Assembly: GCF_025641885.1 (NCBI RefSeq)
Contig: NZ_JAOTQN010000001.1
Coordinates: forward strand, 1,200,547-1,264,546
DNA from: Pyrobaculum sp. 3827-6
Lineage (GTDB): Archaea > Thermoproteota > Thermoprotei > Thermoproteales > Thermoproteaceae
Direction of reading: 5' to 3'
DNA: 64,000 bases
Under the pieces are notes generated by a model. It saw only the letters and a list, made by a program, of their open reading frames with translations. It was not told the DNA's origin and made no database searches. Each line of letters opens with the position of its first letter. Position 1 is the first letter of the stretch. Position numbers and translations under genes: made by a program. Positions 29,348 through 63,559 of the stretch are shown one piece after another.

Positions 29348-29454
29348 CTAAAAACGCCGCGCCGGAGGCCGCAGAGTGGACCTCGGCGGCGCTCGGCGAG
29401 GTGAGAAAGGCGCAACGCGGCGGCGCCGAGCCAGCACGGGGCGCGCGACGCGCG

Positions 29455-31350: not shown

Positions 31351-31457
31351 AGTGAAGTCTCTTACCCAGCTATAGTGCTGGCTTCTCCGATGATAATATA
31401 TTCTCTTATTTTATCTACAATAGAGTTTATGAATACTTATGTAGCATATTTAAAGAG

Positions 31458-32525: not shown

Positions 32526-32566
32526 TTTTTCTCTAAACTTTATAGGTATGTAGTTACTACATACCT

Positions 32567-33649: not shown

Positions 33650-34512
33650 CGCTCCCCCTTTAGGATGTGCTGGAGGTGGCTAAGCAACTCCATGGGCACT
33701 ACGATCTTCGTCGACGGGGAGGAGGCCATGTTCTTAAGCGCCTCTAGGTACTGGAGCAACAGGGCGTTCGGCCCCAGCTTAGAGGCGGCTTCGTTAAGCA
33801 GTTCAAGCGCCTTCGCCTGGCCCTCTGCTCTGAGGATAGCCGCCTGGCGCTCCCCCTCCGCCTGGAGGATGGCGGACTGCTTCTGACCCTCCGCCCTCAG
33901 AATCGCGGCTTGCTTCTCGCCGTCTGCCTGGGCGATCATAGCCCTCCTCTCCCTCTCGGCGGCTATCTGCTTCACCATCGCCGACTGCACCGTCGACGGC
34001 GGGATGATCTCCCTAATCTCCACCGCAGTCACCTTCACCCCCCACCTCGCCGTGACCTCGTCCAGCTTAGCCCTGAGCACGGAGTTGATGTACTCCCTCT
34101 TGGCGAGGACCTCGTCCAGCTCTATGTCGCCCACAACGGCTCTAAGCGTCGTCGTGGCTATCCCCACGGCCGCCTGCTTAAAATTCTGCACCTGTGTGAT
34201 AACCTTCTCCGGGTCCACCACCTTTAGGTATATGAGGAGGTCGATGTCCACCGGCGCGTTGTCCTTAGTGATGCACGTCTGCTTCGTCACGTCGATGACC
34301 TGCTCCCTGAGATCCACGGGGTAGGCCTGGTCGACGACGGGGATGAGGAACACCAGACCAGGCCCCCTCAGCCCGACGAGGCGCCCGAGGCGGAAGACCA
34401 CCAGCCTCATAAACTCCGGCACCACGCGTATGGAGGTGGCGAGGACGGCGATCACGACGACGGCAGTCAACAGCGCCGCGATGCCCCAGACAATCTCCGC
34501 CTGCAGTAGCAT
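33646..34512 (-). CDS. SPFH/band-7 (stomatin/prohibitin-like) protein
   Basis: N-terminal TM helix, SPFH core (VVFRLGRLVGLRGPGLVFLIPVVD...) and a C-terminal AAILRAEGQ repeat coiled coil. Confidence 0.85.
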   Translation of the reverse strand: MLLQAEIVWGIAALLTAVVVIAVLATSIRVVPEFMRLVVFRLGRLVGLRGPGLVFLIPVVDQAYPVDLREQVIDVTKQTCITKDNAPVDIDLLIYLKVVDPEKVITQVQNFKQAAVGIATTTLRAVVGDIELDEVLAKREYINSVLRAKLDEVTARWGVKVTAVEIREIIPPSTVQSAMVKQIAAERERRAMIAQADGEKQAAILRAEGQKQSAILQAEGERQAAILRAEGQAKALELLNEAASKLGPNALLLQYLEALKNMASSPSTKIVVPMELLSHLQHILKGER

Positions 34513-34518
34513 ATTGAG

Positions 34519-38283: not shown

Positions 38284-38370
38284 CGCCATCCCCACACACG
38301 CCACGGCCCCAAACACCACGCCGCGCCCGCAGAGCCACACAAAAATATATTTAGCAATTCAGACAGAGAC

Positions 38371-38832
38371 GTGGCAGTCACCATATCTCCCCCCGTGGCC
38401 GAGGTGCTGAAAAAAGCGGCAGGAGATAAAGATCTGGAGGAGTTCCTACTCACACTAGTCGCAGAGCGGCTCGATCCGCCAGAGCGCGTCGAGGCTTACC
38501 TCAAGCTTCATGAGAAGTTTTTGAGGGAGGCTGAGGAGCTGTATCAAAAGGGCGACTTGGTGCAGGCTGGTGAGAAGTACTGGGGCGCCGTAGCCGCTTT
38601 GCTAAACGCATTGGCGGAGAAGCGGGGCTGGGAGCACCACAGCCACAGAGACTACGCAGTCGCGGTAGAGAGGCTGTACGAAGAGACAAGAGACAGAGAG
38701 CTGGTGGTGGGGTTTAGAATGGCCGAGGGCCTCCACGCAAACTACTACCACAACTTCATGAGAAGAGAGGGGTTTGAACTGCACAGAGAGGCCGTATTGA
38801 AGCTTGTGGAGAAGCTGAAGAAATTCCTATAA
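38371..38832 (+). CDS. PaREP1-family protein
   Basis: GEKYWGAVAALLNALAEKRGWEHHSHRDYAVAVERLYEE...MAEGLHANYYHNFM is paralogous to 14066..14551. Confidence 0.65.
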   Translation: MAVTISPPVAEVLKKAAGDKDLEEFLLTLVAERLDPPERVEAYLKLHEKFLREAEELYQKGDLVQAGEKYWGAVAALLNALAEKRGWEHHSHRDYAVAVERLYEETRDRELVVGFRMAEGLHANYYHNFMRREGFELHREAVLKLVEKLKKFL

Positions 38833-38889: not shown

Positions 38890-39570
38890 ATGTATATAGA
38901 CTTGACGATGGAGCTGGGCCCCGACACGCCTGTCTTCCTCGGCTACCCCAAGCCGGCTTTCATCCAGTGGTCCAAGATAGACCTCCACGGCTACTACTCC
39001 CGCGTGATGTACACGCCAGAGCACTCAGCCACACACGTCGACTCCCCCGCCCACTTCGTGCCGGGGGCGAGGACAGTGGACCAGATACCCCCCGAGAAGT
39101 TCATCGGCGCCTTCGTCGCACTCGACTTCTCCGACCTGCCCCCCAGAGGCCAGATAACGCTGAGGGCATTCGAGGCCAGACTCCCCCGCGGCGCCGACCT
39201 CGGCCCCGGCGCCGTGGTCCTCCTCCGGACGGGGTACGACGCCTACGCCGGGACAGACCGCTGGCTGGAGCACCCCGACATATCGCCAGAGCTGGCTGAG
39301 CACCTAGCCAAGCTAGGCATAAACGCCGTGGGGACAGACGCCCCCTCCCCAGACCACGCCCCCTTCGAAATACACAAAATACTCCTCGCGAGGGAGGTTT
39401 TGATATACGAAAACCTCACAAACCTCGCCGCCGTCGTCGGCAAGAGAGGCCGCTTCTACGGCCTACCCCTAGTGCTATCCCCACACCCCATCTTCATTTT
39501 TCCTGACTCGACGTCGGATGTTTTTCCTGATTCAGGAAGATTGTCTGATTTTAACTCAGGTAAAATGTAG
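38890..39570 (+). CDS. Cyclase-family protein (arylformamidase/kynurenine formamidase-like); C-terminus fused into IS hairpin sequence
   Basis: PF04199-like motifs (HSATHVDSPAHF, LLRTGYD, GTDAPSPD). The last ~28 codons (PHPIFIFPDSTSDVFPDSGRLSDFNSGKM) are encoded by the IS terminal hairpin repeat. Confidence 0.7.
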   Translation: MYIDLTMELGPDTPVFLGYPKPAFIQWSKIDLHGYYSRVMYTPEHSATHVDSPAHFVPGARTVDQIPPEKFIGAFVALDFSDLPPRGQITLRAFEARLPRGADLGPGAVVLLRTGYDAYAGTDRWLEHPDISPELAEHLAKLGINAVGTDAPSPDHAPFEIHKILLAREVLIYENLTNLAAVVGKRGRFYGLPLVLSPHPIFIFPDSTSDVFPDSGRLSDFNSGKM

Positions 39571-40716
39571 ATGGGAGGGTTGAAAGTCGTGTTGGGAAAA
39601 AAGGGGGATTATTTCCCGGTACCTCTTCTGTGCCCAATGTATCGGCACATCGTCACGGTTGGCCTCAAAGCCGCACTGACATTTCACCCTTCTGTTCGGA
39701 AGCTCCTCCATCTTTGCTCCGCATCTGGGGCAAATGGTGGAGTACAGCCTCAGCTCTGCGTAGGGCACCCCGTACCACTCGGCAAGCTCCCTCAGCCTCT
39801 TCACAAGCCTCCCCACATTGAGATACTTCTTGACGTTTGACTTTACCCTATCGCCTTTCTTCAGCCCCCGTATAGATTCGTCTATGGGCTCGTCCACTAC
39901 GACGGCGGCTTTGTACTGCATAGCGAGCTTCACGATCTTCTTTGCCGCCTCTATTGTCCATTGCCTCCACAGCCGCCAGAGGCGGCTCTTGGCCTCTGTT
40001 GCCTTTTTGCAGTAGGCGCCGCCTTTTGTGGTACATAGGGAGTCCAGCCTGGCGATCTCCCTCTCCAAGCGGCCGATGCGGCCGAGATCAGGCCTCAAGA
40101 TGCCCTTCTGCAACACCTTATCTTCCTCTATGGTGGCTATCACTATGCCGTTGTGGAGGGCGTTGACGTCGACTACGAGAAGCCTCTTGGGCTGGTATGG
40201 CGTAATTTCTCTGTGGAACACAAGCACCACGTTGAAAGTGGCGATGTTGCTGTCCCGCCGCCTGCCTACCCACGCCAGGGCGAATTTCAGCTGGGCGCTC
40301 TCCTTCACCCTTTCTTCAATCCACTTGATCTCAGACTTCCTCAGCTTAATCACGATGGTGTTGCCTCTCTCGCCGCTCCACTTCCTGATTCTAACCTCCC
40401 TCTCTGACAGATCTACAAGGACGCCGCGGCTGTTGTCGCCCGCGTTTTTATCAAGCCTCAGCTCTGCGTTGAAAGGAAGCGGCACCCTCCACACGCCATT
40501 CTTAAGCCCATTCGCGGGCAAGAGCTTCAACGCATGTTTCAACTCAGTGGCGAAGTACTTCAGTGGATTCTGCTGTGGGAGCGGTGCTTTGAATCCGCTC
40601 TTGTACCACTCCGTTGCCCACTCCTGGAACTTCTGTTGCACCTCTAGGAATTTGGTCAGCTGATGCGGCGGTATTTCTTCCACTCTCCTCTTTATTACCA
40701 GCGTTCGGTAGCCCAT
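39556..40716 (-). CDS. tnpB: TnpB (IS605 OrfB) RNA-guided nuclease-like transposon protein
   Basis: 386 aa with a RuvC-like split nuclease domain and a C-terminal zinc finger CPRCG...CQCG, which is typical TnpB architecture. Confidence 0.85.
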   Translation of the reverse strand: MGYRTLVIKRRVEEIPPHQLTKFLEVQQKFQEWATEWYKSGFKAPLPQQNPLKYFATELKHALKLLPANGLKNGVWRVPLPFNAELRLDKNAGDNSRGVLVDLSEREVRIRKWSGERGNTIVIKLRKSEIKWIEERVKESAQLKFALAWVGRRRDSNIATFNVVLVFHREITPYQPKRLLVVDVNALHNGIVIATIEEDKVLQKGILRPDLGRIGRLEREIARLDSLCTTKGGAYCKKATEAKSRLWRLWRQWTIEAAKKIVKLAMQYKAAVVVDEPIDESIRGLKKGDRVKSNVKKYLNVGRLVKRLRELAEWYGVPYAELRLYSTICPRCGAKMEELPNRRVKCQCGFEANRDDVPIHWAQKRYREIIPLFSQHDFQPSHLHFT

Positions 40717-43225: not shown

Positions 43226-44431
43226 GTGTACGCAGTAGTAGCCCACCACTACTGGGGAAGCCCCGGGGGAGGACAGCTAGTCTGCGCCGCCACAGCCTGG
43301 TCCCTAGACGCTATGGGATACCGCCCTGTCCTCACCGGCACCTTCAAATTCGACCCGGCAAAATACCGCGAGTGGTACGGCATAGACCTCGCCAAGTACT
43401 CCGCCGTCACTCTCCCCATATCAGCCAGAGCCTTCGGCCTATGGGCCAGGCTGTGGGTGTGGCGCCCCGCCGCCAAAGCTATAAAGAAGTACAAGCCAGA
43501 TATCGTGTTCATAGACGAAGTCACCTACAAGCCGCTCTTAAAGGAGAAGGACTTCAAGCTAGTGGAGTACATACACTTTCCCTTTGAGGTGGTGGTTGAC
43601 CCCCGCTTCAAGGGCACCGGCTTGGCCTACGGCGAGGATCCCTACATAATGGAGCGCTACGGCAGATTCCCCCTAAACCTCTACTGGAAGATCTTCGTCA
43701 AGGGGCTCAAGAGGTACATGCGGGAGAACCCCTTCCACGCCGCCGACGCCGTGCTGGTAAACTCCAAGTGGACAGCCGAAGTAGCGAAGATGGTCTACGG
43801 CGAGAGGCCCGCCGTCCTGAACCCCCCGCTACCCCCAAACGTCGAGATCGTTGAGAAGCCCAGGCCCTTCGAGGAGAGGAAGCCGTGGGTCGTCATGCTG
43901 GGCCGCTTCAGCCAGGAGAAGAGGTACCACTGGGTAGTGACGGAGGTGGCCCCCCGCCTCTTCAAGGAGGTGCCCGAGGCCCGTCTCTTCATCTTCGGCG
44001 GGGCCGCCACGCCCACATTACAGGCGTACAAGGAGCGGGTGAGGCTGATGGCGCAAAACGCCGGGCTGAAGGTCGCCGAGACGCTGGACGCAGACGCCCA
44101 GGTCTATTTGATCGCCAACGCTCCCCGCCGCCTTATAAACGAGGTGATGGACCAGGCAAGGGCCTTCCTCCACGCCACGGTAAATGAGCACTGGGGCATC
44201 GCCGTCGCGGAGGCCATGGCTCGGGGATTGACGCCGGTTGTACACAAATCCGGCGGCACGTGGACAGACCTAGTGGAAATGGGGAGGTACGGCATGGGAT
44301 ACGAATCGTCGGAGGAAGCCGTCGAGGCGCTGTCAAAGGCCTTGCTCAACGGCGCGGTCTACCCGACTTGGGAAAAGACAAAAGAAGTCAGTCTCGATCA
44401 CTACGTTGCGAAGCTCCGCCAGTATCTATGA
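43226..44431 (+). CDS. Glycosyltransferase family 4 (GT-B, GT1/GT4-like)
   Basis: C-terminal GT4 signature ...RAFLHATVNEHWGIAVAEAMARGLTPVVHKSGG (EX7E-type). Confidence 0.8.
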   Translation: MYAVVAHHYWGSPGGGQLVCAATAWSLDAMGYRPVLTGTFKFDPAKYREWYGIDLAKYSAVTLPISARAFGLWARLWVWRPAAKAIKKYKPDIVFIDEVTYKPLLKEKDFKLVEYIHFPFEVVVDPRFKGTGLAYGEDPYIMERYGRFPLNLYWKIFVKGLKRYMRENPFHAADAVLVNSKWTAEVAKMVYGERPAVLNPPLPPNVEIVEKPRPFEERKPWVVMLGRFSQEKRYHWVVTEVAPRLFKEVPEARLFIFGGAATPTLQAYKERVRLMAQNAGLKVAETLDADAQVYLIANAPRRLINEVMDQARAFLHATVNEHWGIAVAEAMARGLTPVVHKSGGTWTDLVEMGRYGMGYESSEEAVEALSKALLNGAVYPTWEKTKEVSLDHYVAKLRQYL

Positions 44432-46450: not shown

Positions 46451-46611
46451 AAAGGCGTCGCCATCTTTCTAACATGCCTGCCCACCACGCCACTAACCCG
46501 TCGGCCAATCTTTTCTGACTCTCCCAGAGGCTGACCAGCGTAGATTACGATGTTTAAAAGAGGCAACGAGAATAACATTTTCAATTAATCTATAGTGGCA
46601 TCCTATAAGCG

Positions 46612-46883
46612 AGGCCACGGATCGGGCCAGGGCGTTCCTGCACGCCACGGTAAATGAGCACTGGGGCATCGCCGTCGCGGAGGCCATGGCCCGCGGGCTA
46701 ACACCCGTAGTGCACAAGTCGGGAGGGCGTGGATCGACCTGGTGGAGATTGGGAGGTACGGCATGGGTATCTTACAGCCACGAGGCGCTCGCGGCGCTCG
46801 CCAGGCTACTTCTACAGAGACACGACGTAGAGATACACAAAAAGATTAAATCACTAACCTTAGGGGAATCGAGAAGGGCCTAG
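46612..46883 (+). pseudogene. Duplicated 3' fragment of the GT4 gene (copy of ~44148-44345), frameshifted
   Basis: About 200 nt at 46612-46810 are near-identical to the 3' part of the 43226..44431 gene (RAFLHATVNEHWGIAVAEAMARGLTPVVHKSGG...). A 1-nt indel breaks the frame. Confidence 0.6.
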
Positions 46884-52072: not shown

Positions 52073-52630
52073 CTAGCGGAGGCTTGTCTTGAGCTCTTCC
52101 AGTGCCTTTTCCAGTTCTTGGCTCCACTTGACGCGGAGTTTGAGGAACTCGGCGTATCTAATCACTCCCTGGACTAGCTTAACCACGTCGTAAGCCGCCT
52201 CCTCGCTACTTCTGTACTTAGAGAGGGCCATATCCGGATCCGGCCCGTGGTACTGGTAGTCGTGGAGGTCGAGGGCCTTGTCAGTCCACAGAGAGATGTC
52301 GGGGTGGCCTATCTGCTCCAGCATCTGAGAGAGGGTTTTCATCCTCCCAGTGGGCAGTCGGGGCACCGCCGTCGACTCAAGCCACTTCCTCTCCTCCTCA
52401 GTCTTGGCGAGAGATTTCAGCTTGTCTAGCTCCAGCCTCAATAAGGCGGCCATAAACGCCCTCCACGCCTGGAAGGCCTTGCCGGCGGCGTTTCTAACGA
52501 GGCCCTCCTCGAGGTATCTCAACGCCAGCCGGGCCTCCACCAGGGCCTCTAGGAGGCGGGCTGTTACATAGCCTTCGCTGGTGGGTTTAGGTAGGGGCTT
52601 ATCCAAAGTCTTTGCCAGAACCACGTCCAC
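52073..52630 (-). CDS. PaREP1-related helical protein (EGLVRNAAGKAFQAWRA subfamily)
   Basis: 185 aa. Paralog of 16561..17130 and 55232..55783 with ~60% identity by eye. Confidence 0.6.
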   Translation of the reverse strand: MDVVLAKTLDKPLPKPTSEGYVTARLLEALVEARLALRYLEEGLVRNAAGKAFQAWRAFMAALLRLELDKLKSLAKTEEERKWLESTAVPRLPTGRMKTLSQMLEQIGHPDISLWTDKALDLHDYQYHGPDPDMALSKYRSSEEAAYDVVKLVQGVIRYAEFLKLRVKWSQELEKALEELKTSLR

Positions 52631-52753
52631 ACTAGCCAGTTTATATTTAACTAATGTGGCTTTTGGTAGCCGCCGCTCTGTAGTGGGCAGGCGTGTGGGC
52701 TGGGGTGGTGGCTGTAGGCACCTACCTCAACACCCCCGCGTCTTTACCGGTGT

Positions 52754-53350
52754 CTAGCGTCTTTGTGCGCGGCTCTGGAGTATTTTCCTTGCCTCGTCTA
52801 GCATTTTCTTGACTTTGTCTACGCCTGTCTTTACGTATTCTATGGTTAGCTTGCCTTCGTGAAATCCCCAGACGTGTAGGTCGTATGCGGCGTTCCAGCC
52901 GTCTTGGATCCAGTCGCCTAGGTTTTTGGCGAGGGTTTTGCTCGCCATGCTGAGCAGGTAGGTGTACCACCTGCCCTCTCTGAGGAACCTGCCGTATTCG
53001 GGGGTTCTGTATTTCTCCGCCAGGGCCTTTACCACCTCTTCGGCGGCTTTGTAGGCCTTTTCGCTGGCCTGCACGGCGTCGCCCTTGTTTACGTACTCCT
53101 GGCACTCCTCCATGTACCTCTCGGCGAGTTTGAGCCTCTTCCTGGAGCTCTCCTCGGGATCCCCGGCGCTTAGGGCGTCAAGTGGGAGTTCCTCTACGTT
53201 AATTCCTCTCTTTTCCAGCTTTTTGATAAGCTCCTCCAAGGTGTGGTTGGGAACTTTATCTTTAAATCTCTCCCCAGTGCCGGGCAACTGGGCGCACCGC
53301 CGCGCGGAGGTGCAGATGCGCGTCCTGGGCGCGCTGAAGAGGCGGCGTGT
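52754..53350 (-). CDS. PaREP1-family protein (start uncertain, no in-frame ATG near the domain start)
   Basis: Core SEKAYKAAEEVVKALAEKYRTPEYGRFL...LGDWIQDGWNAAYDLHVWGFHEGKLT is paralogous to 14066 and 38371. The track ORF extends to 53464 through Arg/Pro-rich non-coding-looking sequence. Confidence 0.55.
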   Translation of the reverse strand, partial: TRRLFSAPRTRICTSARRCAQLPGTGERFKDKVPNHTLEELIKKLEKRGINVEELPLDALSAGDPEESSRKRLKLAERYMEECQEYVNKGDAVQASEKAYKAAEEVVKALAEKYRTPEYGRFLREGRWYTYLLSMASKTLAKNLGDWIQDGWNAAYDLHVWGFHEGKLTIEYVKTGVDKVKKMLDEARKILQSRAQRR

Positions 53351-53818
53351 GGGTGGATTTTGGGAGCCCCCCAGACTTAAAAACCTAGGCCTAGGGCAGA
53401 GCCGTCTCCTGGGAGTTTTGTAGACAATGCAAGTTCTGCGGCGGCCGCCGCGTCTTTGAGGCATTTACCCGACGCGGGACGCGCGGTCAGGGCGGCTGTC
53501 GTGCGTCGGTGGGGGCGGTCTTTCAATTCTAAGGGCCTGCCCCCCGTCGGCGAGCACCGCTTCGACGCTTGGGTTAGAGGCGGCCTAACGCCCTCTACGC
53601 CACCACGATGGACACGGCCTATACCTGTGTTAGAGCCGCTTCCTCGGCTTGCAGGTGGGAGCGGCGGCCTTCCACGCGCGGTTCCCGCCGTGTGTTCTCT
53701 AAGGACTGCATTGCGGCCCGCGCCCGATCGCTTGGTGGTTGAGCGGTGCGTTCCGCAAGCCGGAGGCGCGACGTCCTCTCGACTAGGCTTCTATTTAAAC
53801 CGGGAGAGTAGCTTCCAT

Positions 53819-54571
53819 ATGCGGCTGTTGGAACAGCTTGATAGGGTGAAGAGGTATCTGGCCCTGCTGAGGGAGAGGCTGGAGGGGGGTGGGGACTTGT
53901 TTGCCCTTGAGCGCCTCGCGGAGCTCGTGGCCCAGTCTGTCCTCGACCTGGCGGCTATGTGGGCGGCGGCTGAGGGGGGCGAGAAGCCGGCCACCTATAG
54001 GGATCTGGCGGCTTTTTTGGCGAGGAAGATCGGGGGCCATGGGGAGTTCCTGAGGCGCCTCGCCTCATTTAGGAATATAATCGTACATAGATACTATCAG
54101 CTGGACGAGGCGAGGGAGCTGGAGGCCTTCCGCGAGATCGCCTCCACTATGCCGCAGATAGTCGAGGCCCTGGAGGCGAAGTTGCCCGGCGACCCCTGTA
54201 TCGACGACGTGGGGAGGCTGAGGGAGGTTTTCGAGAGGCACGGCGTGGCATACGTCGTCGTCTTCGGCTCCGTCGCCAAGAAGGGGTGCGGCCGCGATCT
54301 TGACCTAGCCGTCAAGTTCACGAGGCCGGTAGGTCTGTGGGATCTCGCGGGCTTCGCGGCCGACGTGGCGGAGGCCCTGGGCCTCGACTACGGACAAGTA
54401 GACGTGGTGGACATAGACACGGCGCCCCCCGGCGTCCTCCTATCTATCCTCGAGGGAGTACCTGTGTACAACGAGGAGAGGGCTAGGGAGGACCTGGCGC
54501 GGAGGTACATAGAGCTTCTAGACGTAGGCGAGGCCTGGCGCGCCGCACAGCAAAGGCTCGCGAGGCGGTGA
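53819..54571 (+). CDS. Fused HEPN (DUF86) - minimal nucleotidyltransferase single-polypeptide protein
   Basis: An N-terminal HEPN with FRNIIVHRYYQLD (Rx4HxY) is followed by the NTase motif VVVFGSVAKKGCGRDLDLAV. The start is taken at MRLLEQLDRV (53819). The track ORF's upstream 120 aa look non-coding. Confidence 0.65.
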   Translation: MRLLEQLDRVKRYLALLRERLEGGGDLFALERLAELVAQSVLDLAAMWAAAEGGEKPATYRDLAAFLARKIGGHGEFLRRLASFRNIIVHRYYQLDEARELEAFREIASTMPQIVEALEAKLPGDPCIDDVGRLREVFERHGVAYVVVFGSVAKKGCGRDLDLAVKFTRPVGLWDLAGFAADVAEALGLDYGQVDVVDIDTAPPGVLLSILEGVPVYNEERAREDLARRYIELLDVGEAWRAAQQRLARR

Positions 54572-55231: not shown

Positions 55232-55783
55232 GTGGATGTGAGAGTTTTGGAGAAGCCCCTCCCCAAGCCCTCTGCGGAGGACTACGTCTCTGCCCGCCTT
55301 CTGGAGGCTCTTGTGGAGGGCTGGCTTGCTGTTAGGTTTCTAAAGGAGGGCCTCGTTAGAAACGCCGCGGGGAAGGTCTTCCAGGCGTGGAGGGCGTTGC
55401 TGGCGGCTCTGCTGAGGCTTGAACTTGACAAATTGAAATCCCTTGCCAAGACTGAGGAGGAGAGGAGATGGCTTGAGTCGACGGCTGTGCCTAGAGTGCC
55501 CACCAGCAGAATGACTGCGCTGTCGCAGATGCTTGAGGAGGTTGGACACGCTAAGATTGCCCTCGGCACTGCCCTGGCGTTTAATCTCCACGACTACCAA
55601 TACCACGGGCCTGATCCCGACATGGCGTGGTCAAAATACCGCACAAGAGAAGAAGCCGCAAAAGACATGGTCTTGTTATTGAGGGAGCTCGCCGAGAGGG
55701 TGAAAGCGTTAAGGGGGAGAGTCAAGTGGAGCGGCGAGTTAGAGGAGTCGTTGAAGGAGTTAATGAGGGAGCTGGCGACGTAG
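55232..55783 (+). CDS. PaREP1-related helical protein (EGLVRNAAGKVFQAWRA subfamily)
   Basis: 183 aa. Paralog of 52073..52630. Confidence 0.6.
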   Translation: MDVRVLEKPLPKPSAEDYVSARLLEALVEGWLAVRFLKEGLVRNAAGKVFQAWRALLAALLRLELDKLKSLAKTEEERRWLESTAVPRVPTSRMTALSQMLEEVGHAKIALGTALAFNLHDYQYHGPDPDMAWSKYRTREEAAKDMVLLLRELAERVKALRGRVKWSGELEESLKELMRELAT

Positions 55784-56037
55784 CCGTATATATTTTTGGG
55801 TTTTGCGCTTCACTACAGTCGTGGAGACTTGGGGGTTGGAGATCGGCTGGTTTGGTTGTTGGGCGGTTGGATAGCCGTGGTGGTGTGGGGATAACTGCCT
55901 TATATACCGGGTGGCGGTCTGGAGTTTTCTGATGTATCTGCGTAGCTGTGCCTTACTGCGGCTGTAGGGGATTGTGGATGCAGAATAAGATGCCGAAATT
56001 CTGACATCTGGGAATTTTTTATAAATCTGTTATTCTG

Positions 56038-56268
56038 TTGTGTATGAGGGTTGTTAAAGTGTCTAAGAAAAACACAGTGTATATACCTAAGGAGATCGCC
56101 GACGCGCTGGGCATTGGAGAGGGGTCACTGCTGGAGCTCCGGGTAGAGGGAGGCACACTGGTGGCCGTGCCGATCCCCAGCCCACTTAAGCTAGCCCTTG
56201 AGGGGCCGAAGTTCGCCAAGACCACTGTGGAGGAGTTTGAGAGGGGGAGCGAGGAGGGGCAGTCGTGA
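56038..56268 (+). CDS. vapB: AbrB/MazE/SpoVT-type antitoxin (VapB)
   Basis: 76 aa. KNTVYIPKEIADALGIGEGSLLELRVEGGTLVAVPI is the swapped-hairpin beta-barrel antitoxin signature. It overlaps the downstream PIN gene by 4 nt. Confidence 0.65.
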   Translation: MCMRVVKVSKKNTVYIPKEIADALGIGEGSLLELRVEGGTLVAVPIPSPLKLALEGPKFAKTTVEEFERGSEEGQS

Positions 56269-56640
56269 AGAGGGTACTTCTCGACACCTCGTTTATCCTG
56301 CCCATACTGGGGGTCGAGGTGGAGGGGGCGGCGCTGGTGCTGAAGAGGCTCTATACGCTGTCGAGGAGAGGTGAGGTGGAGCTTTACTACTCGGATTTCT
56401 CCATACTAGAGGCTTTGTGGAAAATTGCAAAAACCAATTTTGATATTAAGAGAGTGGAGATGGGACTTAGAAGTATTGAACTGGGCCTCCGGAAGGCCTA
56501 CGCAGACCGCCGCGTCTTTCTAAAGGCTCTGGAGCTCAGGAGGGGGGCCATCGGGATGTGGTAGCTCTGCTTCTCTACGCAACCGCCGCAAGAAACCACC
56601 TTAACTCGGAAATTCCTCTTGCGTGAGTTGGATCCCCCAG
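56265..56640 (+). pseudogene. PIN-domain toxin (vapC), frameshifted and truncated
   Basis: The N-terminus MKRVLLDTSFILPIL stops at 56564. The PIN C-terminal motif continues in another frame (DVVALLLYATAARNHLNSEIPLA) and then terminates early. Confidence 0.5.
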
Positions 56641-56754
56641 CCGTAGGGTAGGCGGAGTCCGGCTAGAGCCGGGGCGTTGCGCCGTGTTGGGCAGGTTCCG
56701 CCACTCTGGTTTTACGAGGTGTTTGTGGCTTGTGCCGTCTCAATTTTGACGTAT

Positions 56755-57036
56755 TTAGCTTGGAGCCGTCTCATCTCTCCTCGTCATTAGGTGTATTTCT
56801 AGGGGGTAGCCGCTGGGTAGTCCGCGTCTCTCGGCTCTTTCAATTATCTCGAGGACTATCCCCGCCCTCTCGAAGGCACTCTTAGGGACTTCGTCTATCA
56901 CCACGGCTATGTCTATGTCGCTACTGGCGGTCAGCCTGCCCTCTGCGGCCGAGCCGAAGACGTACACCTCGGCGCCGCCGAGGACCTCCTTTACTGCCTC
57001 TGCGACAAGCGGGGCGTATTCACGCCACCTGAGCAA
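56755..57036 (-). CDS. Minimal nucleotidyltransferase (MNT)
   Basis: VYVFGSAAEGRLTASSDIDIAVVI is the GSxxxG...DxD motif. 93 aa. Confidence 0.75.
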   Translation of the reverse strand: MLRWREYAPLVAEAVKEVLGGAEVYVFGSAAEGRLTASSDIDIAVVIDEVPKSAFERAGIVLEIIERAERRGLPSGYPLEIHLMTRRDETAPS

Positions 57037-57073
57037 CTTCTTAAGCCTCTCCGCCTGGTGTCTTGCTACTATG

Positions 57074-57507
57074 TCACTTGAAGACGTCGTCCTCCACCTC
57101 TTTCAAAAAGTTTTTCATATCCGTTGCTGTCTCCAGCGCTTTTTCTGCCTCTTCTTTTTCAAATTCCCTCGCAAAGTGGCGTGACGTAATGTAGACCTCC
57201 TCCAGAGTTGCAGGCTCCCGTCTGCGGCGGCGTGAGGCCTCGGCGATTTTCACCGCGGCGTCTACCTTTCCTAGTCCGCGCAACGCCGTTGCAACAACCC
57301 CCGGCAACTCTTTAATGCCGTGAGTCCTCGGCGTGTATCCCAACAGCATTAAAACACGGCTTTTATGAATAGCTGAAGCGCCTGCTCGCTGAAGAACATA
57401 GCGAGGTCGTAGTGGCCTCTGCCCAGCGCCTCCCTAGCGTACCCTAGCATAGCCAAGCCCCGCCTCTTGAGAATCTCCACCTCTTCAATAGAGCTCATAG
57501 GCGCCGT
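57074..57507 (-). pseudogene. HEPN-domain protein, frameshifted
   Basis: The N-terminal part MSSIEEVEILKRRGLAMLGYAREALGRGHYDLAMFFSEQALQLFIKAVF* (57348-57507) and the C-terminal part (57074..57349, LLGYTPRTHGIKEL...) are in different frames, shifted by 1 nt at a T-run (gtgtttta). Confidence 0.5.
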
Positions 57508-57891
57508 TGCGGTTATATCCACTTCTAAAGGTATCGTGTACCCCCGCGGTGGTCATGTATATTTGCCGGTGCCTAGGGTTTATCGGCCTACAGGCTTCGT
57601 CCACATCTCTTAACCAGATAATTTCTCGGCACGTTTCGGCGATGGTTCTCTGTGTGCTAGTAGTACGCCTTATAGATTATATAGTGGTCCATATGTTGCT
57701 TGTATGTGATTAACGCCATCAATTCTCTCATTAGGCAAGTTAATTTTGGTGTCTACCCCCACCATCTCTCCCGGAGTGTTTTCCTAAGCCAATATGCTGT
57801 AGATTTCGTGAACTCTTCTATTACCTCATCCTTATCTAAGTGGCTCTGCGTGGGCATGCGGCGCCGCGTGTTGGTAGTTATTTAAGCAACT

Positions 57892-58503
57892 TTGCGCCGA
57901 TGTGGGCTTTATGGCTTGGCAAATTTGCTTTTATTTGGGTATCATAGTGTAGCGGTGTTGCGTCTACTTGAGGATGGGACCTTCCTCGTGGTGAAGGGAG
58001 GCGAGGGGGTAAGGCTGAGGATTAGGTCGGTGGCTACCGGCGACGACGTGCTGAAGGCTAGGGCGAGCGGCGCCAGGGCCATCGCGGCTAAGGTTTTCCT
58101 GCCAGAGGCCGTCGAGGTGGCTGGTAGGGAGGGGGTGGAGTTGGTAAATGTGGAGGACGTGGTTGGGCCCCTGGCCTCTGTTTTAAAGGAGTTGCTGAGA
58201 GAAAGGCGGCCCGATTTGCTTGTTAGGTTCTTCCAAGAGATCCTCCCCGAAGCGGTGGCGCGGAGCTACTCCTACAGAGAGTACACAGACTACACCGGCG
58301 CGACATCAGCCGTGGAGTTCAGCGTAGACGCCAAATTTATAAAAGGGGCCCTGGGGCTGTTCGACGACGTTTTTAGTCTTCTCTCTGCCATTGCCTCTAA
58401 GGCCTCGGAACTCGGGATGTACACATCGCTGAATTCTACCTCGGATCCAAGGTGGAAAGAACGTAGAGTTGTACTCGACTTAAAAATAGACCTAAAAACA
58501 TAG
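57892..58503 (+). CDS. Hypothetical protein
   Basis: 203-aa ORF of normal composition. The start may be an internal GTG. No family recognised. Confidence 0.4.
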   Translation: MRRCGLYGLANLLLFGYHSVAVLRLLEDGTFLVVKGGEGVRLRIRSVATGDDVLKARASGARAIAAKVFLPEAVEVAGREGVELVNVEDVVGPLASVLKELLRERRPDLLVRFFQEILPEAVARSYSYREYTDYTGATSAVEFSVDAKFIKGALGLFDDVFSLLSAIASKASELGMYTSLNSTSDPRWKERRVVLDLKIDLKT

Positions 58504-58648
58504 ACGCGCAGCCGCCACATGAACATGTTCCACGTAGCGGCCTCCTACTCCTGCAAGGGGACAAGCACCGGCTCCCGGCGCTCCTCGCATTTCCACGAAG
58601 TTAAGCAGAGGCGGCTATAATTTTTAAAATCAACACTCCCCTATACAC

Positions 58649-59182
58649 ATGTCCATCGACCTCAAGACGCTTGAGGAGGTAGTGGAGAGGGCTGTAAAGA
58701 GGGCCCTTGCAGAAGCCCGTGGCGAGGAGATGAAGGCAGTGGCCGAGGCTTTGAAGGCGCTGGCAGACTACACCAAGGCAGGCTTCGCCCAGCTGACAAT
58801 ACGAGTTGAGAAACTGGAGAAACGCGTATCCACGCTTGAGGATAACCTCGGCTCGCTTACCGAGGCCACCCTCTCCCGGTACGTCTGGGAGGACCTCAGA
58901 GAGGAGGTTGGGGCCAGGGGGGAGGTGGTGCTCGCCAGACGCCGCAACGCCCGTGTGGACGGCTTGGATATCGACCTCCTCGTGGAGACGGATAGGTCGG
59001 TGTACGTGGTGGAGGTGAAGACTAGGGCTAGGAGGAGGGATGTGGACGCCGTGGCTAGGAAGGCGGAGGCGGCCCGCGGAGCCTACGGCAAGCCCGCCGT
59101 CGCCATACTCGCCGGCGTAAGGATAGGAGACGACGTGGAGAAATACGCAAAGGGAAAGGGGGTGCAGGTGTATAGGTACTAG
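58649..59182 (+). CDS. PD-(D/E)XK nuclease-fold protein with N-terminal coiled coil
   Basis: N-terminal heptad-rich helix (LTIRVEKLEKRVSTLEDNLGSLTEA). The C-terminal GLDIDLLVETDRSVYVVEVKTRARRRD fits a D...(D/E)xK restriction-endonuclease-like core. Confidence 0.45.
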   Translation: MSIDLKTLEEVVERAVKRALAEARGEEMKAVAEALKALADYTKAGFAQLTIRVEKLEKRVSTLEDNLGSLTEATLSRYVWEDLREEVGARGEVVLARRRNARVDGLDIDLLVETDRSVYVVEVKTRARRRDVDAVARKAEAARGAYGKPAVAILAGVRIGDDVEKYAKGKGVQVYRY

Positions 59183-60460
59183 GGTGCTAGAGTTCACCGA
59201 GGCCGTGGCGGCGATCTGCGGCCAGCCGCCTCTAGATCTGGCTAGCTGGTGATAGAGCTGTCTAATGCCATCTTCGCCAAGTCCCACGTGGCGTCTATAT
59301 GGGCCAATCTATACCTCCCAATTTCTCACCTAGCGTACCTCGCCGCCTCTCTAAATTTATCCACATGTCTCTCAAACGCAGGCGCGCCTCTATTCTCCGT
59401 CAACGCCACGCCCCCTAACTGTAGCTAATCGCAATTGCGTAGATTCCCGGCGGGTCAAGCCCCCCGCCCCAAGTTCTGGCAGTGCGCCGATTTCCCTAGC
59501 CAGCGGCTCCGCCTCATATCTGAAAAGGATGAAATACAAAAAACCCTCGGCAAAGCCCTCAACCACAAACCAGACGATCTTTTCAGCTCTCACCGCGTCA
59601 AGAACCTCCTCATCAAGACCCCAAGTCAAGAAAATTGTAGATAGCGGGAGTAGAAAGACGGAACCACACTACGCCTCCGCCTCTTCCAAATCTATGAAAT
59701 TGTCCTAGGCCCCCCGCCGCAGACGCCCAACAACACACACAGCGCCAGGTAGACGGATAGGCGCAGCCCGCAGAACAGCCCCACACCAAGGAGCCAGCCC
59801 CGCCACCTTACCCCCACTAGACAGAGGCACCCCCCACGTAACTTGCTCACCCACCATGTAGACGAACCCCCTCCTCTCCCCCTATACCCAGAACCCCACA
59901 AGAAGGTACCCCCACCACCTCTGTATAGAGATATCGGCAACTCCAGCGCCCAATCCTCAAAACCCACGGCACAGCCACAGCCGCCGGGCGGGCGATGACC
60001 GATCCACGCTCGCAGATTTCTGAGTTTTGAGAACTCAGGAGAGCCCGCCCGGCTAGTACTACAGTACTCCATAGATATAAATCTTCCCCGCCGATCACAC
60101 GACGTACCTCTCAACTGCAACGTCTACAAGAAACGAAAAGGCAATCGCCGGTTAAAACAAGGCAGACTGCAGACAGCCGCAGAAACCACAAAGCCCTAAG
60201 TCGGGGGTTTGGAAGTACAGACAGCCGCCGACGCCTGCCCGAAGCACAGTAGCCATAGGGCGTTGATATGAATGCGGCCTATTGCCAGCGGCGTATATGA
60301 GCTCTGTTAGAGGCGAAAATCGCCGCCCTCAGCCCCTCCACCTGTCAGCCCTACAAATTCGTCAAGGGCCGCCTCTGGCCGCGTGAGTACTCGACACACC
60401 CCTCAGCCCACCTAGACATTCTACTAACCCCAGCACGAAATAAACCACAGACACAGCTGG

Positions 60461-60667
60461 CTAAACGGCGAGACAAGGCGCCAACTCCCCAAGGCTTGGA
60501 AGCCTCCTAGCCCTCTCATACATAAACCCTATGCCCAGTCCCTGGACCTTGTGGGGGGTTGTTACGACGTCCCCATAGAAGCCGGTATCGACGAGAGCCC
60601 TCAACCTAACCCCACCACCAGGGCCACGCACCTCCACCTCGACAATCACAGAACTCACAACATGCAT
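60461..60667 (-). pseudogene. Retropepsin-like aspartyl protease fragment
   Basis: MHVVSSVIVEVEVRGPGGGVRLRALVDTGFYGDVVTTPHKV... is similar to the N-terminal half of 14704..15072 but ends after ~68 aa. The upstream part of the track ORF is non-coding-like. Confidence 0.4.
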
Positions 60668-61089
60668 CAGATTCCTATATAATAACATTCCATAAAATGA
60701 GAACAATAATGGTAAGCCACAACACGAGCCGCGTTTCAGAACGCTCCGACCGAGCCAAGCACAAAAAAGGAGAAAAAACCACAGCCTAGCCCGAAGTGCT
60801 CCGATACCCATGAGAAAATTACGTACCGTCAACTCCTTGCACCACCACCCTCCCACGGCCAGCGGATCAGACCCGAGGCTTACGCAACTAACTTGTCTCT
60901 AAAAATCCCCAGCGCGAAGCCGCCCCCTCCAACGCCCCCCGGGCGGCCCCTCCCCTTGGCGCCTTCGGCGCCTCGGGGCCCCGTGACCCCCGAGACGCCC
61001 GGAGAGCAGAAGGGGACATTCTGCTCAGCGCAGAGCCGCGTTGCCAGAGGGCCGGGGCTTAGTGAAAAATTTATAAATATTTGTGGAGA

Positions 61090-61172
61090 ATTGTACGGCC
61101 GGGCGGGCTCCCCTGAGTTCCCTATCTTCAGAAATCTGTGGGCCAGGTCTTCGGTCATCGCCCGCCCGGCTG
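61090..61172. repeat. Second copy of the conserved hairpin element (see 51866..51950)
   Basis: GGCCGGGCGGGCTCCCCTGAGTTCCCTATCTTCAGAAATCTGTGGGCCAGGTCTTCGGTCATCGCCCGCCCGGC is ~85% identical to the 51866 copy, with the same terminal stem. Confidence 0.5.
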
Positions 61173-61798
61173 GCGCGTCCGTTTTTAAGAATTTGGGTTT
61201 TGTCAACACGCCAAGCCACTACAACCCAGACACCACACAGCCGGACCCCACACCAATTCAGACACGGACCGCTGGGGGAGACACACCGCCGCCGAAGTCC
61301 ATTAGATCAGAGTAGTAACAGATTGCACAGGTACTAGCACCGGCTTCGAAGCTCTAATTACAACAGAGCCTCAATTCCGCAACAAGGCCGAGATCCTATA
61401 TACAAGACACTTGTTACCTCTCTTCTATCCCACCACCTCCGCCAACCTAGGAGCAACCGCTCTCAAACACCTCCACATCCAGCCTATGCCCATCCAGCAC
61501 AGCCGCGGAGTCGAGACACTTAAACGCTTCGTACAAGCCGGCGGCCACCGACAAGGGGCCCGAAGCCCGGCCGAGGCCGCGCCCAGCACGAGGGCGGAGC
61601 TCCTAAAAGCAGTCACGCCGCCGGACAGCCGACGGAGACAGCGCAGAGAACCCGCCACAAGATCACCGCGAAGACATGCACTAGCTAAAACACGCCGCGA
61701 AAGAGTTCACGAAGTAGTACTTCGGCCCCGCGGGGCACCACGCCGAGAGAAGCGCCGAAAAGCGCCTAGCGGGGAGACTCTGCGCAGTTGCGGCGTGC

Positions 61799-62173
61799 TT
61801 AACCGCCCCGAGATCTGAGCACGGGAACCCCAAAAGCCCCGGCCCTCCCCGCCATCCTCTTGTCGAAAGTAGCCAGGCGAAGGCCGAGCCTCCTCGCCGT
61901 GAAGACAATCACCAAGTCGTTATAGTAGGCGAACCTCGCGCCGGCCGCCTTCCTCAACGACGCCAAGTCCTCGCACTCCACCACGACCTTCTCGTACCCC
62001 AGGAGGGCCCTCAAGAAATCAACCCCCCTATCTGGCGCCGCCTTCTTGAAAAACCACACTAATTCACGGACCACGACGGTGGGGAGATGCCAGACGTCCA
62101 GAGAGTCGAGGAGTGTCCCGGCGGCGAATCCTCGACCACGTAGTATATCACCGCGTTCGTGTCGACAACAGCC
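61799..62173 (-). pseudogene. PIN-domain toxin (vapC), frameshifted
   Basis: N-terminal MGEAVVDTNAVIYYVVEDSPPGHSSTL (PIN motif 1) in one frame. The remainder (VRELVWFF...FAYYNDLVIVFTARRLGLRLATFDKR...) is in another frame, with the shift near 62085-62095. Confidence 0.6.
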
Positions 62174-62395
62174 TCACCCATCGACTGCGCCCTGTTCTAC
62201 AAACCTGTCTATGTCCTCCGGCGTCAGCCTCATCCCCAGCCTAATCCTCGGCAACGCCCCCGCAACCTTCCTAATCACTATCCGATCCCCCTCGACCTCC
62301 ACCAACAGTCGATCCCCCTCGCGGATTCCCAACGCCCTCCTGACATCTGCCGGGATCGTTATCTGGAAGTTACGCGTCACCTTGACCACCGCCAT
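62174..62395 (-). CDS. vapB: AbrB/SpoVT-type antitoxin (VapB)
   Basis: 73 aa. VKVTRNFQITIPADVRRALGIREGDRLLVEVEGDRIVIRKV. Its stop abuts the start of the PIN gene. Confidence 0.7.
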   Translation of the reverse strand: MAVVKVTRNFQITIPADVRRALGIREGDRLLVEVEGDRIVIRKVAGALPRIRLGMRLTPEDIDRFVEQGAVDG

Positions 62396-62842
62396 AAAGT
62401 ATATATTCCCAATAGCTTAAAAAACTAACTAATACAGCTAGGCAACCCCTCCGCAAGCAGACTACGCCGCCTGCCTCCCTAAACTCCGCTCTGTCCACGT
62501 ACTCCAGTTGGGCTAAGTGGGGCGGGATCTGGCCCACCGCGAGGAACTTGCCACAGTCGGGAGATGCGCCGCGTGGCTGGCGGAAAAGGATTATATTTAC
62601 GGAGTACTGCGGCACGGGACGGGCGGGCTCCCCCGAGCTCCCAAACCTGTGCAACCCCGGTTTCCGTCGAGGAGGCGTCCTGTCGCGGGGCGGCCTCTGC
62701 GCTTCCTCGCCCGAGGGCTAGCGCAACGACCGCAGCCAGCTCGTTTTCATGTAGAGGAATCCGCCGAAGAGGAGGTTCCTCAGCTGAGGGCATCTGATCC
62801 ACAGCCACGATCGCCCGCCGAGCTTAGAAATGAAGTAGCGTA

Positions 62843-63286
62843 GTGTGGGTAAATCTTCGACTCCTACTTGTTAGCTGTATGTTTAAATATGGGGCTTCTC
62901 ATATGTACGTGTCCGGGGAGCTGGGGGTTTTGGCGCAGGAGGCGCTTAGGGTGGCTGTGGAGTCTGTCCTCGGCAAGTTGAGGGAGGGTAAGAAGCTGTC
63001 CACTGAAGACATCTTCCTCCTCTACTTGGCGACAATAGGAAAGGAGCTTGACGAGATTAGGAGGGAGATCGCCGAGGTAAACCAGAGAATAGACCAGACA
63101 AACAGACGGATTGACACGATAGCTCAAGAGTTGGGTAGGCGTATTGACGAGACGAATAAGCGTATTGACGCGATAGCCCAGGAGCTGGGTAGGAGGATAG
63201 ATGAGACGAATAAGAGGATTGATGGGGTGTATGCGTTGCTTCTTGACATACAGAAGCTGTTGGTGGAGATTGCCAGGAAGAGCTGA
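62843..63286 (+). CDS. Coiled-coil protein with internal 18-aa tandem repeat
   Basis: 147 aa. The nucleotide tandem duplication (54-nt period) at ~63119-63226 encodes IAQELGRRIDETNKRID twice, and a third degenerate repeat (RIDQTNRRIDT) lies upstream. Confidence 0.5.
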   Translation: MWVNLRLLLVSCMFKYGASHMYVSGELGVLAQEALRVAVESVLGKLREGKKLSTEDIFLLYLATIGKELDEIRREIAEVNQRIDQTNRRIDTIAQELGRRIDETNKRIDAIAQELGRRIDETNKRIDGVYALLLDIQKLLVEIARKS

Positions 63287-63559
63287 GGCGCGGTTGCTCT
63301 TATCCTCTGTAAGAAGGGGACAAACCCAGTTCTTTAAGTCGGAGAGGTGGTCAGCAACTTTCTCTCCTACGCGTATGCGCCCAAGCTGACATTCCGCCGC
63401 CGGGCGCCCCTACAGCTGTTGATCTCGGTAGCCCGACTCACAGCGCGGCTTTCGATATTCTACTTGAAGTTAAAATCGGACATTCCCTGAATCAGGTATA
63501 ACATCTAATGCTCCGCATGGCGTCGCCAAACGCGTAATCTAGAACTGCCTACCCACTAG

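Follow-up and report, generated by a model that had tools for sequence, protein, structure and literature searches.

Three toxin-type genes of Pyrobaculum sp. 3827-6, a hot-spring, hyperthermophilic crenarchaeon (draft genome JAOTQN000000000), are true pseudogenes and not sequencing errors. Their inactivations fall within 6.4 kb, and the partner of each is still an open reading frame (ORF). We consider it very probable that the ordinary, already described two-step erosion of chromosomal toxin–antitoxin (TA) modules explains this arrangement. All positions refer to the window, by which we mean the whole stretch of DNA that was analysed, 64,000 nucleotides in length.

Lesions in three toxin-type genes and state of their partners

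The region contains two modules of the AbrB–PIN type and one of the HEPN–MNT type. An earlier note on this DNA had given coordinates and domains for the six genes, which Pfam profiles and reading frames bear out, and had described three interrupted toxin-type ORFs next to three open partner ORFs, as we also find:

56038-56268, plus strand: vapB1, AbrB/MazE-type antitoxin gene; open ORF of 76 aa (Pfam MazE_antitoxin, E=1e-11)
56265-56626, plus strand: PIN1, vapC-like pseudogene with three lesions; aligned to intact 140-aa orthologs
56602-58729, unstranded: DNA block with HEPN-MNT and a 203-aa ORF; BLAST boundaries
56755-57036, minus strand: MNT (minimal nucleotidyltransferase), 93 aa; open ORF (Pfam NTP_transf_2, PF01909, E=1e-10)
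57074-57498, minus strand: HEPN pseudogene, PF05168-type (Pfam E=8e-21 after repair)
61799-62181, minus strand: PIN2, vapC-like pseudogene (Pfam PIN E=5e-14 after repair)
62174-62395, minus strand: vapB2, AbrB/MazE-type antitoxin gene; open ORF of 73 aa (Pfam PF04014, E=8e-17)

In the first module, vapB1 (56038-56268) overlaps the start of PIN1 at 56265, with both genes on the same strand and the antitoxin upstream. The NCBIfam AbrB domain of vapB antitoxins, TIGR01439, is matched above cut-off, and vapB1 is full length relative to the orthologs of P. ferrireducens and ERZ1669248, with a pN/pS of 0.28 against the former. PIN1 carries three lesions: the deletion of a single A, flanked by Gs, between 56543 and 56544; a GAT>GCT change (Asp>Ala) at 56565, a conserved acidic position; and a replaced 3' end, where homology to intact orthologs stops at 56601/56602. 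The replacement removes the C-terminal ~25 residues, including the LTMDRD segment with the last conserved acidic residue, and the Pfam PIN match covers only profile positions 1-105 of 120. The PIN residues that we take to be catalytic are assigned from motif knowledge, without a structure. A complete PIN domain with the conserved acidic residues is absent from PIN1 and present in the 140-aa ortholog of P. ferrireducens; a second intact ortholog of the same length lies on ERZ1669248 contig 6708. The 3' junction recurs in contigs of ERZ1669248 and JGI 3300019821 and is inherited, not recent, and truncated and intact PIN1 alleles co-occur in one hot-spring metagenome. At 8 nonsynonymous to 1 synonymous substitution, the evolution of PIN1 looks neutral.

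The second PIN module repeats this layout, as vapB2 (62395-62174) overlaps the start of PIN2 at 62181, on the same strand and again with the antitoxin upstream. The lesion in PIN2 is a complex indel at 62114-62123, in which 22 nt have given way to 9 nt (net -13). A complete PIN domain is absent from PIN2, with its 13 nt lost, and is present in the intact 128-aa ortholog of P. ferrireducens; homologs of 126-136 aa are widespread. The same lesion is found in the metagenome contig WPAA01021412 and is inherited, not recent. Even between these two deletion-bearing sequences, the pN/pS of PIN2 is ~0.2, which implies recombination or a recent lesion, and not long neutral decay. The null allele sits on two different 3' haplotypes, which implies recombination or persistence in populations. 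In an exact-protein look-up, vapB2 has the same amino-acid sequence in 3827-6 and P. ferrireducens (100% protein identity across three lineages), the two genes differing by 0 nonsynonymous and 3 synonymous changes; against WPAA, which offers the only post-inactivation comparison, there are 0 differences of any kind, and this comparison is therefore uninformative on selection after toxin loss.

The third module lies in a block of DNA (56602-58729) that adjoins the truncated PIN1, has another gene context in MAG JBMFKV010000162, and is missing from the syntenic region of P. ferrireducens. Intact HEPN orthologs of 131 aa occur in four assemblies (L005, L006, L008, L009), and BLAST places the edges of the block where homology to P. 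ferrireducens ends (56601), where homology to L005 begins (56602), and where that to L006, L008, and L009 runs out (58699-58729). MNT carries the GSX10DXD motif (GSAAEGRLTASSDID at residue 28), and the same 93-aa form stands beside an intact HEPN in two environmental contigs (L008, L009); its C-terminus is shorter than in more distant homologs (108-129 aa), and it shows a 2-nt indel relative to L005. L006, where coverage is just 8.5x, has its intact HEPN next to an MNT of 78 aa that bears an additional frameshift.

In HEPN, one G of a GG is deleted at 57354/57355, beside a T-run (GTGGTTTTA > GTGTTTTA). The earlier note had placed this shift in the T-run and favoured a technical cause, which does not hold: the T4 run has equal length in 5/5 compared HEPN sequences, and the lost base is a G. 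A second indel at 57105-57115 adds 10 aa to the C-terminus, and four nonsynonymous changes are found only in the 3827-6 strain when it is compared with the four orthologs. As a result of the frameshift, a stop and a start codon overlap at 57347-57351 (TAATG), and the downstream fragment begins at the ancestral Met codon, both of which would suit a HEPN that is split and not dead, its coupled 49-aa and 91-aa fragments perhaps being made and perhaps reassembling. We regard a split HEPN as very improbable: the strain-specific changes and the second indel suggest relaxed constraint, 0/4 orthologs are split, and we know of no precedent for a functional split HEPN of the PF05168 type.

As to family, HEPN matches PF05168 and not PF01934 (HepT-like), with no match in NCBIfam. 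An Rx4-6H motif was not found in its C-terminal half, the sole regex match being REALGRGH at residue 22; a HepT-like paralog at 27063-27494 of the same window has RNLLVH at residue 106. The PF05168-type HEPN is a putative toxin, named so only by analogy with other HEPN families.

These genes had been described as broken by single-nucleotide frame changes. The description fits the 1-nt deletions in PIN1 and HEPN, but not the net -13 of PIN2, the Asp>Ala change and 3' replacement of PIN1, or the second indel of HEPN. Each toxin bears multiple or complex lesions rather than simple homopolymer slips, and the lesions are real, mutually independent, and different in kind.

Authenticity of the lesions and other pseudogenes in the window

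Several frameshifts inside one 64-kb window, and a second HEPN indel sitting in adjoining A and T runs, might be taken as signs of a sequencing or assembly artefact, whereby systematic indel errors make false frameshifts. This reading, one of two in the earlier note, is rejected as extremely improbable because an independent re-assembly equals the window at all three loci. The genome was read on the Illumina NovaSeq (2x100; 29.4 M reads over 2.3 Mb, or ~1290x), and the Logan assembly of the same reads (SRR21876913), made with a different assembler, is 100% identical to the window over 55639-58751, 59134-62958, and 19455-38553, which takes in 3/3 TA loci and the SDR locus. Most lesions lie outside homopolymers (a complex indel of net 13 nt, a junction, a lost A flanked by Gs, a lost G in GG), and independent environmental assemblies carry the PIN2 lesion as well as the 3' junction of PIN1. 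Nor are frameshifts spread uniformly across essential genes, as sequencing error would have it: the large housekeeping ORFs within the window show no interruption. The practical use is a quality check, in that the frameshifts are biological and should be annotated as pseudogenes, not 'corrected'.

Disruptions had also been reported in three genes outside the TA modules, and ortholog, profile, and frame evidence confirms all of them:

22967-23765, plus strand: SDR pseudogene with a 1-nt insertion (G at 23138)
9279-9588, plus strand: acylphosphatase pseudogene with a frame change near 9355-9365, in the N-terminal active-site loop
13000-13960, minus strand: trxB-like (Pyr_redox_2) pseudogene with several frame changes

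An intact SDR ortholog of 241 aa is found in Pyrobaculum sp. CTOTU25734. In Pfam, the match of the acylphosphatase is confined to profile positions 11-72 of 85, the first ~10 being in another frame, and the trxB-like gene is represented by three ORF fragments in at least 3 frames that align one after another to the Pyr_redox_2 profile. A GT1 fragment is a further pseudogene in the window.

Order of decay and the possible part of selection

Under two-step erosion, the killing of an antitoxin while its toxin works would be lethal or strongly counter-selected, and surviving decay paths would thus begin with toxin inactivation; we infer that lethality of antitoxin-first loss gives rise to the toxin-first order. 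The short antitoxin gene would then linger, either because too little time has elapsed or, alternatively, owing to some residual use, e.g., as an autoregulator or in cross-neutralisation. The toxins would once have been active, and the antitoxins would still be expressed. The orthologous toxins (PIN1, PIN2, HEPN) are whole in relatives, and the partner ORFs are those that accompany intact toxins elsewhere. Recurrent inactivation of toxins with their antitoxin ORFs kept, as the earlier note proposed, is supported as an observation.

The island that holds the three broken toxins has been rearranged, turns over fast, and is rich in both TA modules and PaREP1 genes. It is conceivable that the stretch at 56-62.4 kb is simply a junk island undergoing non-specific decay, in which toxins were struck as the longer genes, with no TA-specific logic. 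Compared with P. ferrireducens, the TA region shows rearrangement and inversion, no recognisable genes were found at 59.2-61.8 kb, and the window holds the other pseudogenes listed above (SDR, acylphosphatase, trxB-like, and the GT1 fragment). By length alone, the probability that all three first lesions fall in the longer gene is 0.24. We nevertheless judge junk decay to be unlikely, as toxins are enriched among the pseudogenes of the window (3/7 against ~4/70 other genes; p=0.014), all five disabling lesions are in toxins and 0 in partners (p=0.09), there is constraint on the vapB genes, and the 203-aa and 177-aa ORFs of the same island are still open.

The asymmetry between toxin and antitoxin is not statistically compelling and only weakly above chance (p ~0.1 to 0.25): in this one window, 3/7 toxin-type genes are broken against 0/7 partners (Fisher one-sided p=0.096). 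This lack of significance counts against two-step erosion, as do the pN/pS of ~0.2 in PIN2, the putative status of the toxin and antitoxin roles in the HEPN-MNT pair, and the intact HEPN beside a frameshifted MNT in L006.

A stronger reading would have toxin loss positively selected and the antitoxins kept by selection, either as anti-addiction or immunity factors against related toxins of plasmids and viruses or as regulators. It draws on the three independent inactivations within 6.4 kb, the purifying selection on the vapB genes, the vapB2 protein that is 100% identical across three lineages, and the PIN2 null allele on two 3' haplotypes; anti-addiction has also been treated as a concept in published work. 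Such adaptive disarmament seems improbable to us, as survivorship plus short elapsed time may account for the pattern too, the counts are not significant, and the analysis identified no mobile element with a related toxin. Pooled over vapB1 and vapB2, 5/14 changes are nonsynonymous (p=0.002), and the vapB genes are under constraint; this constraint, however, takes in time with functional modules in the compared lineages, is not assignable to the post-inactivation period, and is no evidence of selection once the toxin had died. Nor is toxin loss general, since in the window four other TA-like modules still have theirs intact. Hence the words 'selective' and 'anti-addiction' in the earlier note go beyond the evidence: survivorship alone yields the toxin-first order. 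Selection for anti-addiction is possible.

We give similarly little credence to a related idea, whereby disarmed TA alleles have an advantage and pass between co-existing Pyrobaculum lineages by homologous recombination, with VapB and MNT serving as standing immunity; the protection would be anti-addiction against toxin-carrying viruses or plasmids. Hints of a spreading disarmed allele come from the PIN2 null on two haplotypes, the co-existing PIN1 alleles, and the invariant vapB2 protein. Natural populations of Pyrobaculum carry whole as well as decayed alleles of these TA modules side by side, and the wider interest lies in whether selection keeps orphan antitoxins.

Comparison with known systems

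The two vapB-PIN pairs resemble VapBC modules in gene order, overlap, domain content, and sizes, and AbrB-PIN pairs are nearly ubiquitous (Makarova 2009). A VapBC toxin stops growth and is neutralised by its antitoxin. They differ in that both PIN genes are disabled in 3827-6, PIN1 also being without its C-terminal segment.

The HEPN-MNT pair resembles MNT-HEPN modules of the COG1708-COG2250 type and type VII HepT/MntA in that an MNT with the GSX10DXD motif adjoins a small HEPN protein. MNT was originally proposed as the toxin of the MNT-HEPN pair (Makarova 2009). In type VII systems the HEPN protein is the toxin, which the MNT antitoxin neutralises by AMPylation. Relative to type VII HepT/MntA, the HEPN here is PF05168 (COG2250-like) and not HepT PF01934, Rx4-6H is absent where HepT has one, and MNT scores 35 bits against NF047752 (NCBIfam MntA_antitoxin), whose cut-off is 60. 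The assignment of toxin and antitoxin roles within the pair is putative and made by analogy.

The 2002 genome paper of Fitz-Gibbon on Pyrobaculum aerophilum reportedly describes a single-nucleotide frameshift spectrum. The many small-indel pseudogenes in this Pyrobaculum genome recall the MutSL-less archaea, although most lesions here lie outside mononucleotide runs; in such hyperthermophiles, 1-nt frameshifts make up a prominent share of mutations (review PMC4471258, with data from Sulfolobus).

The closest likeness is to two-step erosion. In Photorhabdus, toxin inactivation before antitoxin loss is the usual two-step decay (Belot et al. 2026, PMC13617665), and decay of ccdO157 in E. coli is cited there from Mine et al. 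2009. As in those systems, toxin ORFs are truncated or frameshifted and antitoxin ORFs persist, the spots are of high turnover, and intact and decayed alleles occur among close relatives. The present case differs in concerning a hyperthermophilic crenarchaeon instead of a bacterium and in comprising three modules in one window, known from sequence, and it extends to a hyperthermophile among the archaea a route of decay for which the documented examples have so far been bacterial.

The six toxin–antitoxin genes and the soundness of their sequence

We checked the six genes of the three toxin–antitoxin (TA) loci by ORF listing, three-frame translation and Pfam, with the following result:
56038-56268, + strand: vapB1, AbrB/MazE-type antitoxin gene; ORF open
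from 56265, + strand: PIN1, vapC-like toxin gene; ORF interrupted
57036-56755, - strand: MNT, minimal nucleotidyltransferase gene; ORF open
57498-57074, - strand: HEPN, toxin-type gene; ORF interrupted
62395-62174, - strand: vapB2, AbrB/MazE-type antitoxin gene; ORF open
62181-61799, - strand: PIN2, vapC-like toxin gene; ORF interrupted

The earlier note had described three toxin ORFs broken by single-nucleotide frame changes beside intact partners. The genes lie where it placed them, with all three toxin-type ORFs interrupted and all three partner ORFs open; its account of the lesions was not confirmed, as PIN2 shows a net change of -13 nt, PIN1 has lost its 3' end and HEPN carries a second indel.

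Pyrobaculum sp. 3827-6 is a Kamchatka isolate with P. ferrireducens 1860 as its closest cultivated relative, sequenced on an Illumina NovaSeq 6000 (2x100; 29,430,240 reads, SRR21876913; 2.30-Mb genome, about 1290x) and assembled with Unicycler and SPAdes (PMC9872711). In the Logan re-assembly of the same reads, for which the assembler differs from that of the published genome, contigs are 100% identical to the window at 19455-38553 (L001), 59134-62958 (L003) and 55639-58751 (L007), stretches that take in the three TA loci and a disrupted SDR gene. This identity, together with the sequencing depth, makes systematic indel error, the technical reading that the note had offered, untenable. Long housekeeping genes are also unbroken in the window, among them sulfite-reductase-like genes, ATP sulfurylase, a CobB-like gene and dTDP-sugar genes.

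Lesions in PIN1, HEPN and PIN2

Aligned to intact 140-aa orthologs from P. ferrireducens (L002) and metagenome contig ERZ1669248 NODE_6708 (L016), PIN1 has lost a single A (56543/56544), which turns AGGAGGAGGGG into AGGAGGGGGG; the G6 run at the site is the result of this deletion, not its cause. At 56565, GAT>GCT replaces, in the ancestral frame, the Asp of VVDLLLYATA, which we take to be an acidic residue conserved in PIN domains, with Ala. Homology to the intact orthologs ends exactly at 56601, with loss of the C-terminal ~25 residues, LTMDRD included, and from 56602 on there follows a different DNA block with HEPN–MNT and a 203-aa ORF. That block also occurs in MAG JBMFKV010000162 in another context, its homology beginning exactly at 56602, and the truncated PIN1/HEPN–MNT junction recurs in ERZ1669248 NODE_6247 and JGI 3300019821. 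With an intact PIN1 on NODE_6708 and the truncated junction on NODE_6247, two contigs that match window 56000-58700, both arrangements are thus found in one metagenome, and the assembled contigs indicate that intact (native 3' end) and decayed forms co-exist in one hot-spring community. Nonsynonymous and synonymous PIN1 differences stand at 8:1, in line with neutrality.

HEPN is intact, at 131 aa, in four orthologs (the MAG, L005; NODE_6247, L006; and environmental contigs L008 and L009) that are 92-93% identical. The window copy lacks one G at 57354/57355 (GCCGTGGTTTTAATG has become GCCGTGTTTTAATG). A shift in a T-run had been proposed here, but the missing base is a G and the T4 run is equal in all five HEPN sequences, so the loss is no T-run slip. 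The overlapping stop/start TAATG (57347-57351) left by the split is a chance product of ancestral TTA-ATG codons. The second indel (net +1, 57105-57115) falls within neighbouring A and T runs and takes away the native stop of the downstream fragment. All four window-specific substitutions relative to the four orthologs are nonsynonymous. Pairs among the window, L005 and L006 show 0 synonymous and 8-11 nonsynonymous differences, also between both intact copies, a hint that selection on this HEPN subfamily is diversifying or relaxed. The repaired HEPN had no match in a PDB sequence search and no relative in a genome contig collection, which lacks strain 3827-6.

The polarity of the HEPN–MNT pair is uncertain. 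HEPN is of the PF05168/COG2250-like type and matches no HepT family, and where HepT carries its Rx4-6H motif this protein has none; the score of its MNT does not reach the MntA cut-off, and MNT was first suggested as the toxin by Makarova 2009. The MNT protein has 93 aa, and more distant homologs have 108-129 aa and a longer C-terminus; the MAG still uses the frame of this C-terminus, and a 2-nt deletion therefore gave rise to the 93-aa form. As it adjoins intact HEPN in L008 and L009, the 93-aa form is older than the HEPN lesion, and it is presumably functional. The antitoxins of strain 3827-6 are intact, with the caveat that MNT is this shortened form. On NODE_6247, intact HEPN adjoins an MNT that has lost one further nucleotide (78 aa). 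Should MNT be the antitoxin, this would be a lesion on the antitoxin side; coverage of the contig is only 8.5x, so the deletion may be an assembly error.

Where the intact 128-aa PIN2 of P. ferrireducens has 22 nt (GTTTCATAAGGAGGCCGAGGCG), the window copy has 9 nt (GCCGGGACA) at 62114-62123. The lesion is identical in WPAA01021412, a metagenome contig 94.7% identical overall, and is therefore inherited. In the 3' part of the gene, WPAA01021412 and P. ferrireducens differ at 7/295 positions, and the window sequence is about 7-12% different from either (pN/pS about 0.2); the null allele thus lies on two haplotypes, which implies recombination. Movement of a ~340-bp patch (vapB2 and the PIN2 lesion) between lineages was rejected because a sliding-identity profile gives 93-98% identity for the upstream flank as well. 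The outlier in that profile is the divergent 3' part of window PIN2; the profile as a whole is a mosaic with no clean transferred patch, and recombination is likely.

Two other explanations were considered. Homopolymer slippage as a shared mutational cause, reportedly the mononucleotide-run argument of Fitz-Gibbon's 2002 genome paper on P. aerophilum, was ruled out for four of the five small indels examined. Programmed frameshifting was also ruled out, since the 3' end of PIN1 is missing in any frame and PIN2 has lost 13 nt and has a downstream frame without an upstream start codon.

Other modules, pseudogenes and mobile-looking DNA

A census of the window, drawn from gene tables and from Pfam scans of every plausible ORF, includes four more TA-like modules, in each of which the toxin-type gene is open:
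25986-26631, - strand: CcdA-like/PIN module; open
27063-27879: HepT-like/Polbeta module; open
28627-29344: HEPN/MNT module; open
53456-54571, + strand: HepT-Polbeta fusion; open

The fusion is a single 371-aa ORF with HepT-like HEPN and Polbeta/MNT domains, so that one protein combines toxin-like and antitoxin-like parts; in P. ferrireducens, the syntenic gene call has just 166 aa. The pseudogene census contains all three further disruptions named in the earlier note:
SDR pseudogene; +G at 23138
acylphosphatase pseudogene
trxB-like pseudogene; several lesions
46596-46880: GT1 3' fragment, duplicated

The last entry duplicates the 3' end of the GT1 glycosyltransferase gene at 43226-44431. The copies flank a glycosyltransferase cassette (44.2-48.0 kb; 46-47% GC vs 57.5% for the genome) that looks like a horizontal-transfer insertion. 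Low GC (43-47% vs 57.5%) likewise suggests a foreign origin for the Dsr-like sulfite-reductase/DsrC cluster at 1-6000. A free-standing LAGLIDADG_3 homing-endonuclease-like ORF (36351-37328, +) lies in a 41% GC patch, and a TnpB/Cas12f1-like gene (IS200/IS605 OrfB-type, 386 aa) lies at 39556-40716 (-). Next to the broken acylphosphatase, ORF 9741-10088 (-) matches HEPN weakly, short of the cut-off (E=0.007), with no MNT adjoining it.

Six PaREP1 genes (14069-14566, 16564-17160, 38284-38829, 52076-52726, 52757-53464 and 55232-55783) occur in the 64-kb window, three of them directly upstream of the decayed TA island; PaREP1 is an RHH-HEPN fusion family according to Makarova 2009. An exact-protein search with a 183-aa PaREP1 and a 177-aa ORF gave no match, probably owing to start-codon differences. 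Relative to P. ferrireducens CP003098, the block of vapB2, PIN2 and a DUF948-like gene (61794-63288) is inverted, and the two vapBC loci are separated by 5.2 kb that take the place of about 2 kb of other genes there; leftover ORFs at 59-62 kb had no Pfam match. A ~100-nt repeat is present at 59978-60085 (-), 61070-61176 (+) and, in degenerate form, 62586-62692 (+); in each copy, a TATA-like TTTATA(T/A)AT box precedes an 11-bp GC-rich stem (GCCGGGCGGGC...GCCCGCCCGGC) by about 25 nt. The repeat may represent a family of small-RNA genes or a MITE. The window holds no tRNA gene or Rfam family, and the repeat matches neither; on the same grounds, the tRNA-like look of repeated 'GSPEF' ORF pieces was dismissed.

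Antitoxin constraint and probable TA erosion

The vapB2 protein equals that of P. ferrireducens (3 synonymous, 0 nonsynonymous differences), vapB1 is full length with a pN/pS of 0.28, and the pooled nonsynonymous deficit of the vapB genes has p=0.002. Within the window, 3/7 toxins vs 0/7 partners are broken (p=0.096); the probability that, by length alone, the longer gene takes the first lesion in all three cases is 0.24, and that of five disabling lesions all falling in toxins is 0.09. Against other genes (about 4/70), the 3/7 broken toxins give p=0.014. In these comparisons the three broken toxins share one island and so are not independent samples.

The note's biological reading was selective inactivation of toxins; ordinary TA erosion is what the evidence supports, and selection as the cause is not. 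Antitoxin-first lesions would be eliminated by the toxin itself, and because of this the asymmetry between toxins and antitoxins would need no special selection. Active retention of the antitoxins (anti-addiction) would be a further, less probable reading. It has been reported that 'toxin inactivation precedes antitoxin loss' and that most non-functional systems have truncated toxin ORFs (PMC13617665). The broken-toxin pattern is real and matches this two-step decay already described for chromosomal TA systems, of which the broken toxins of strain 3827-6 are a further example.
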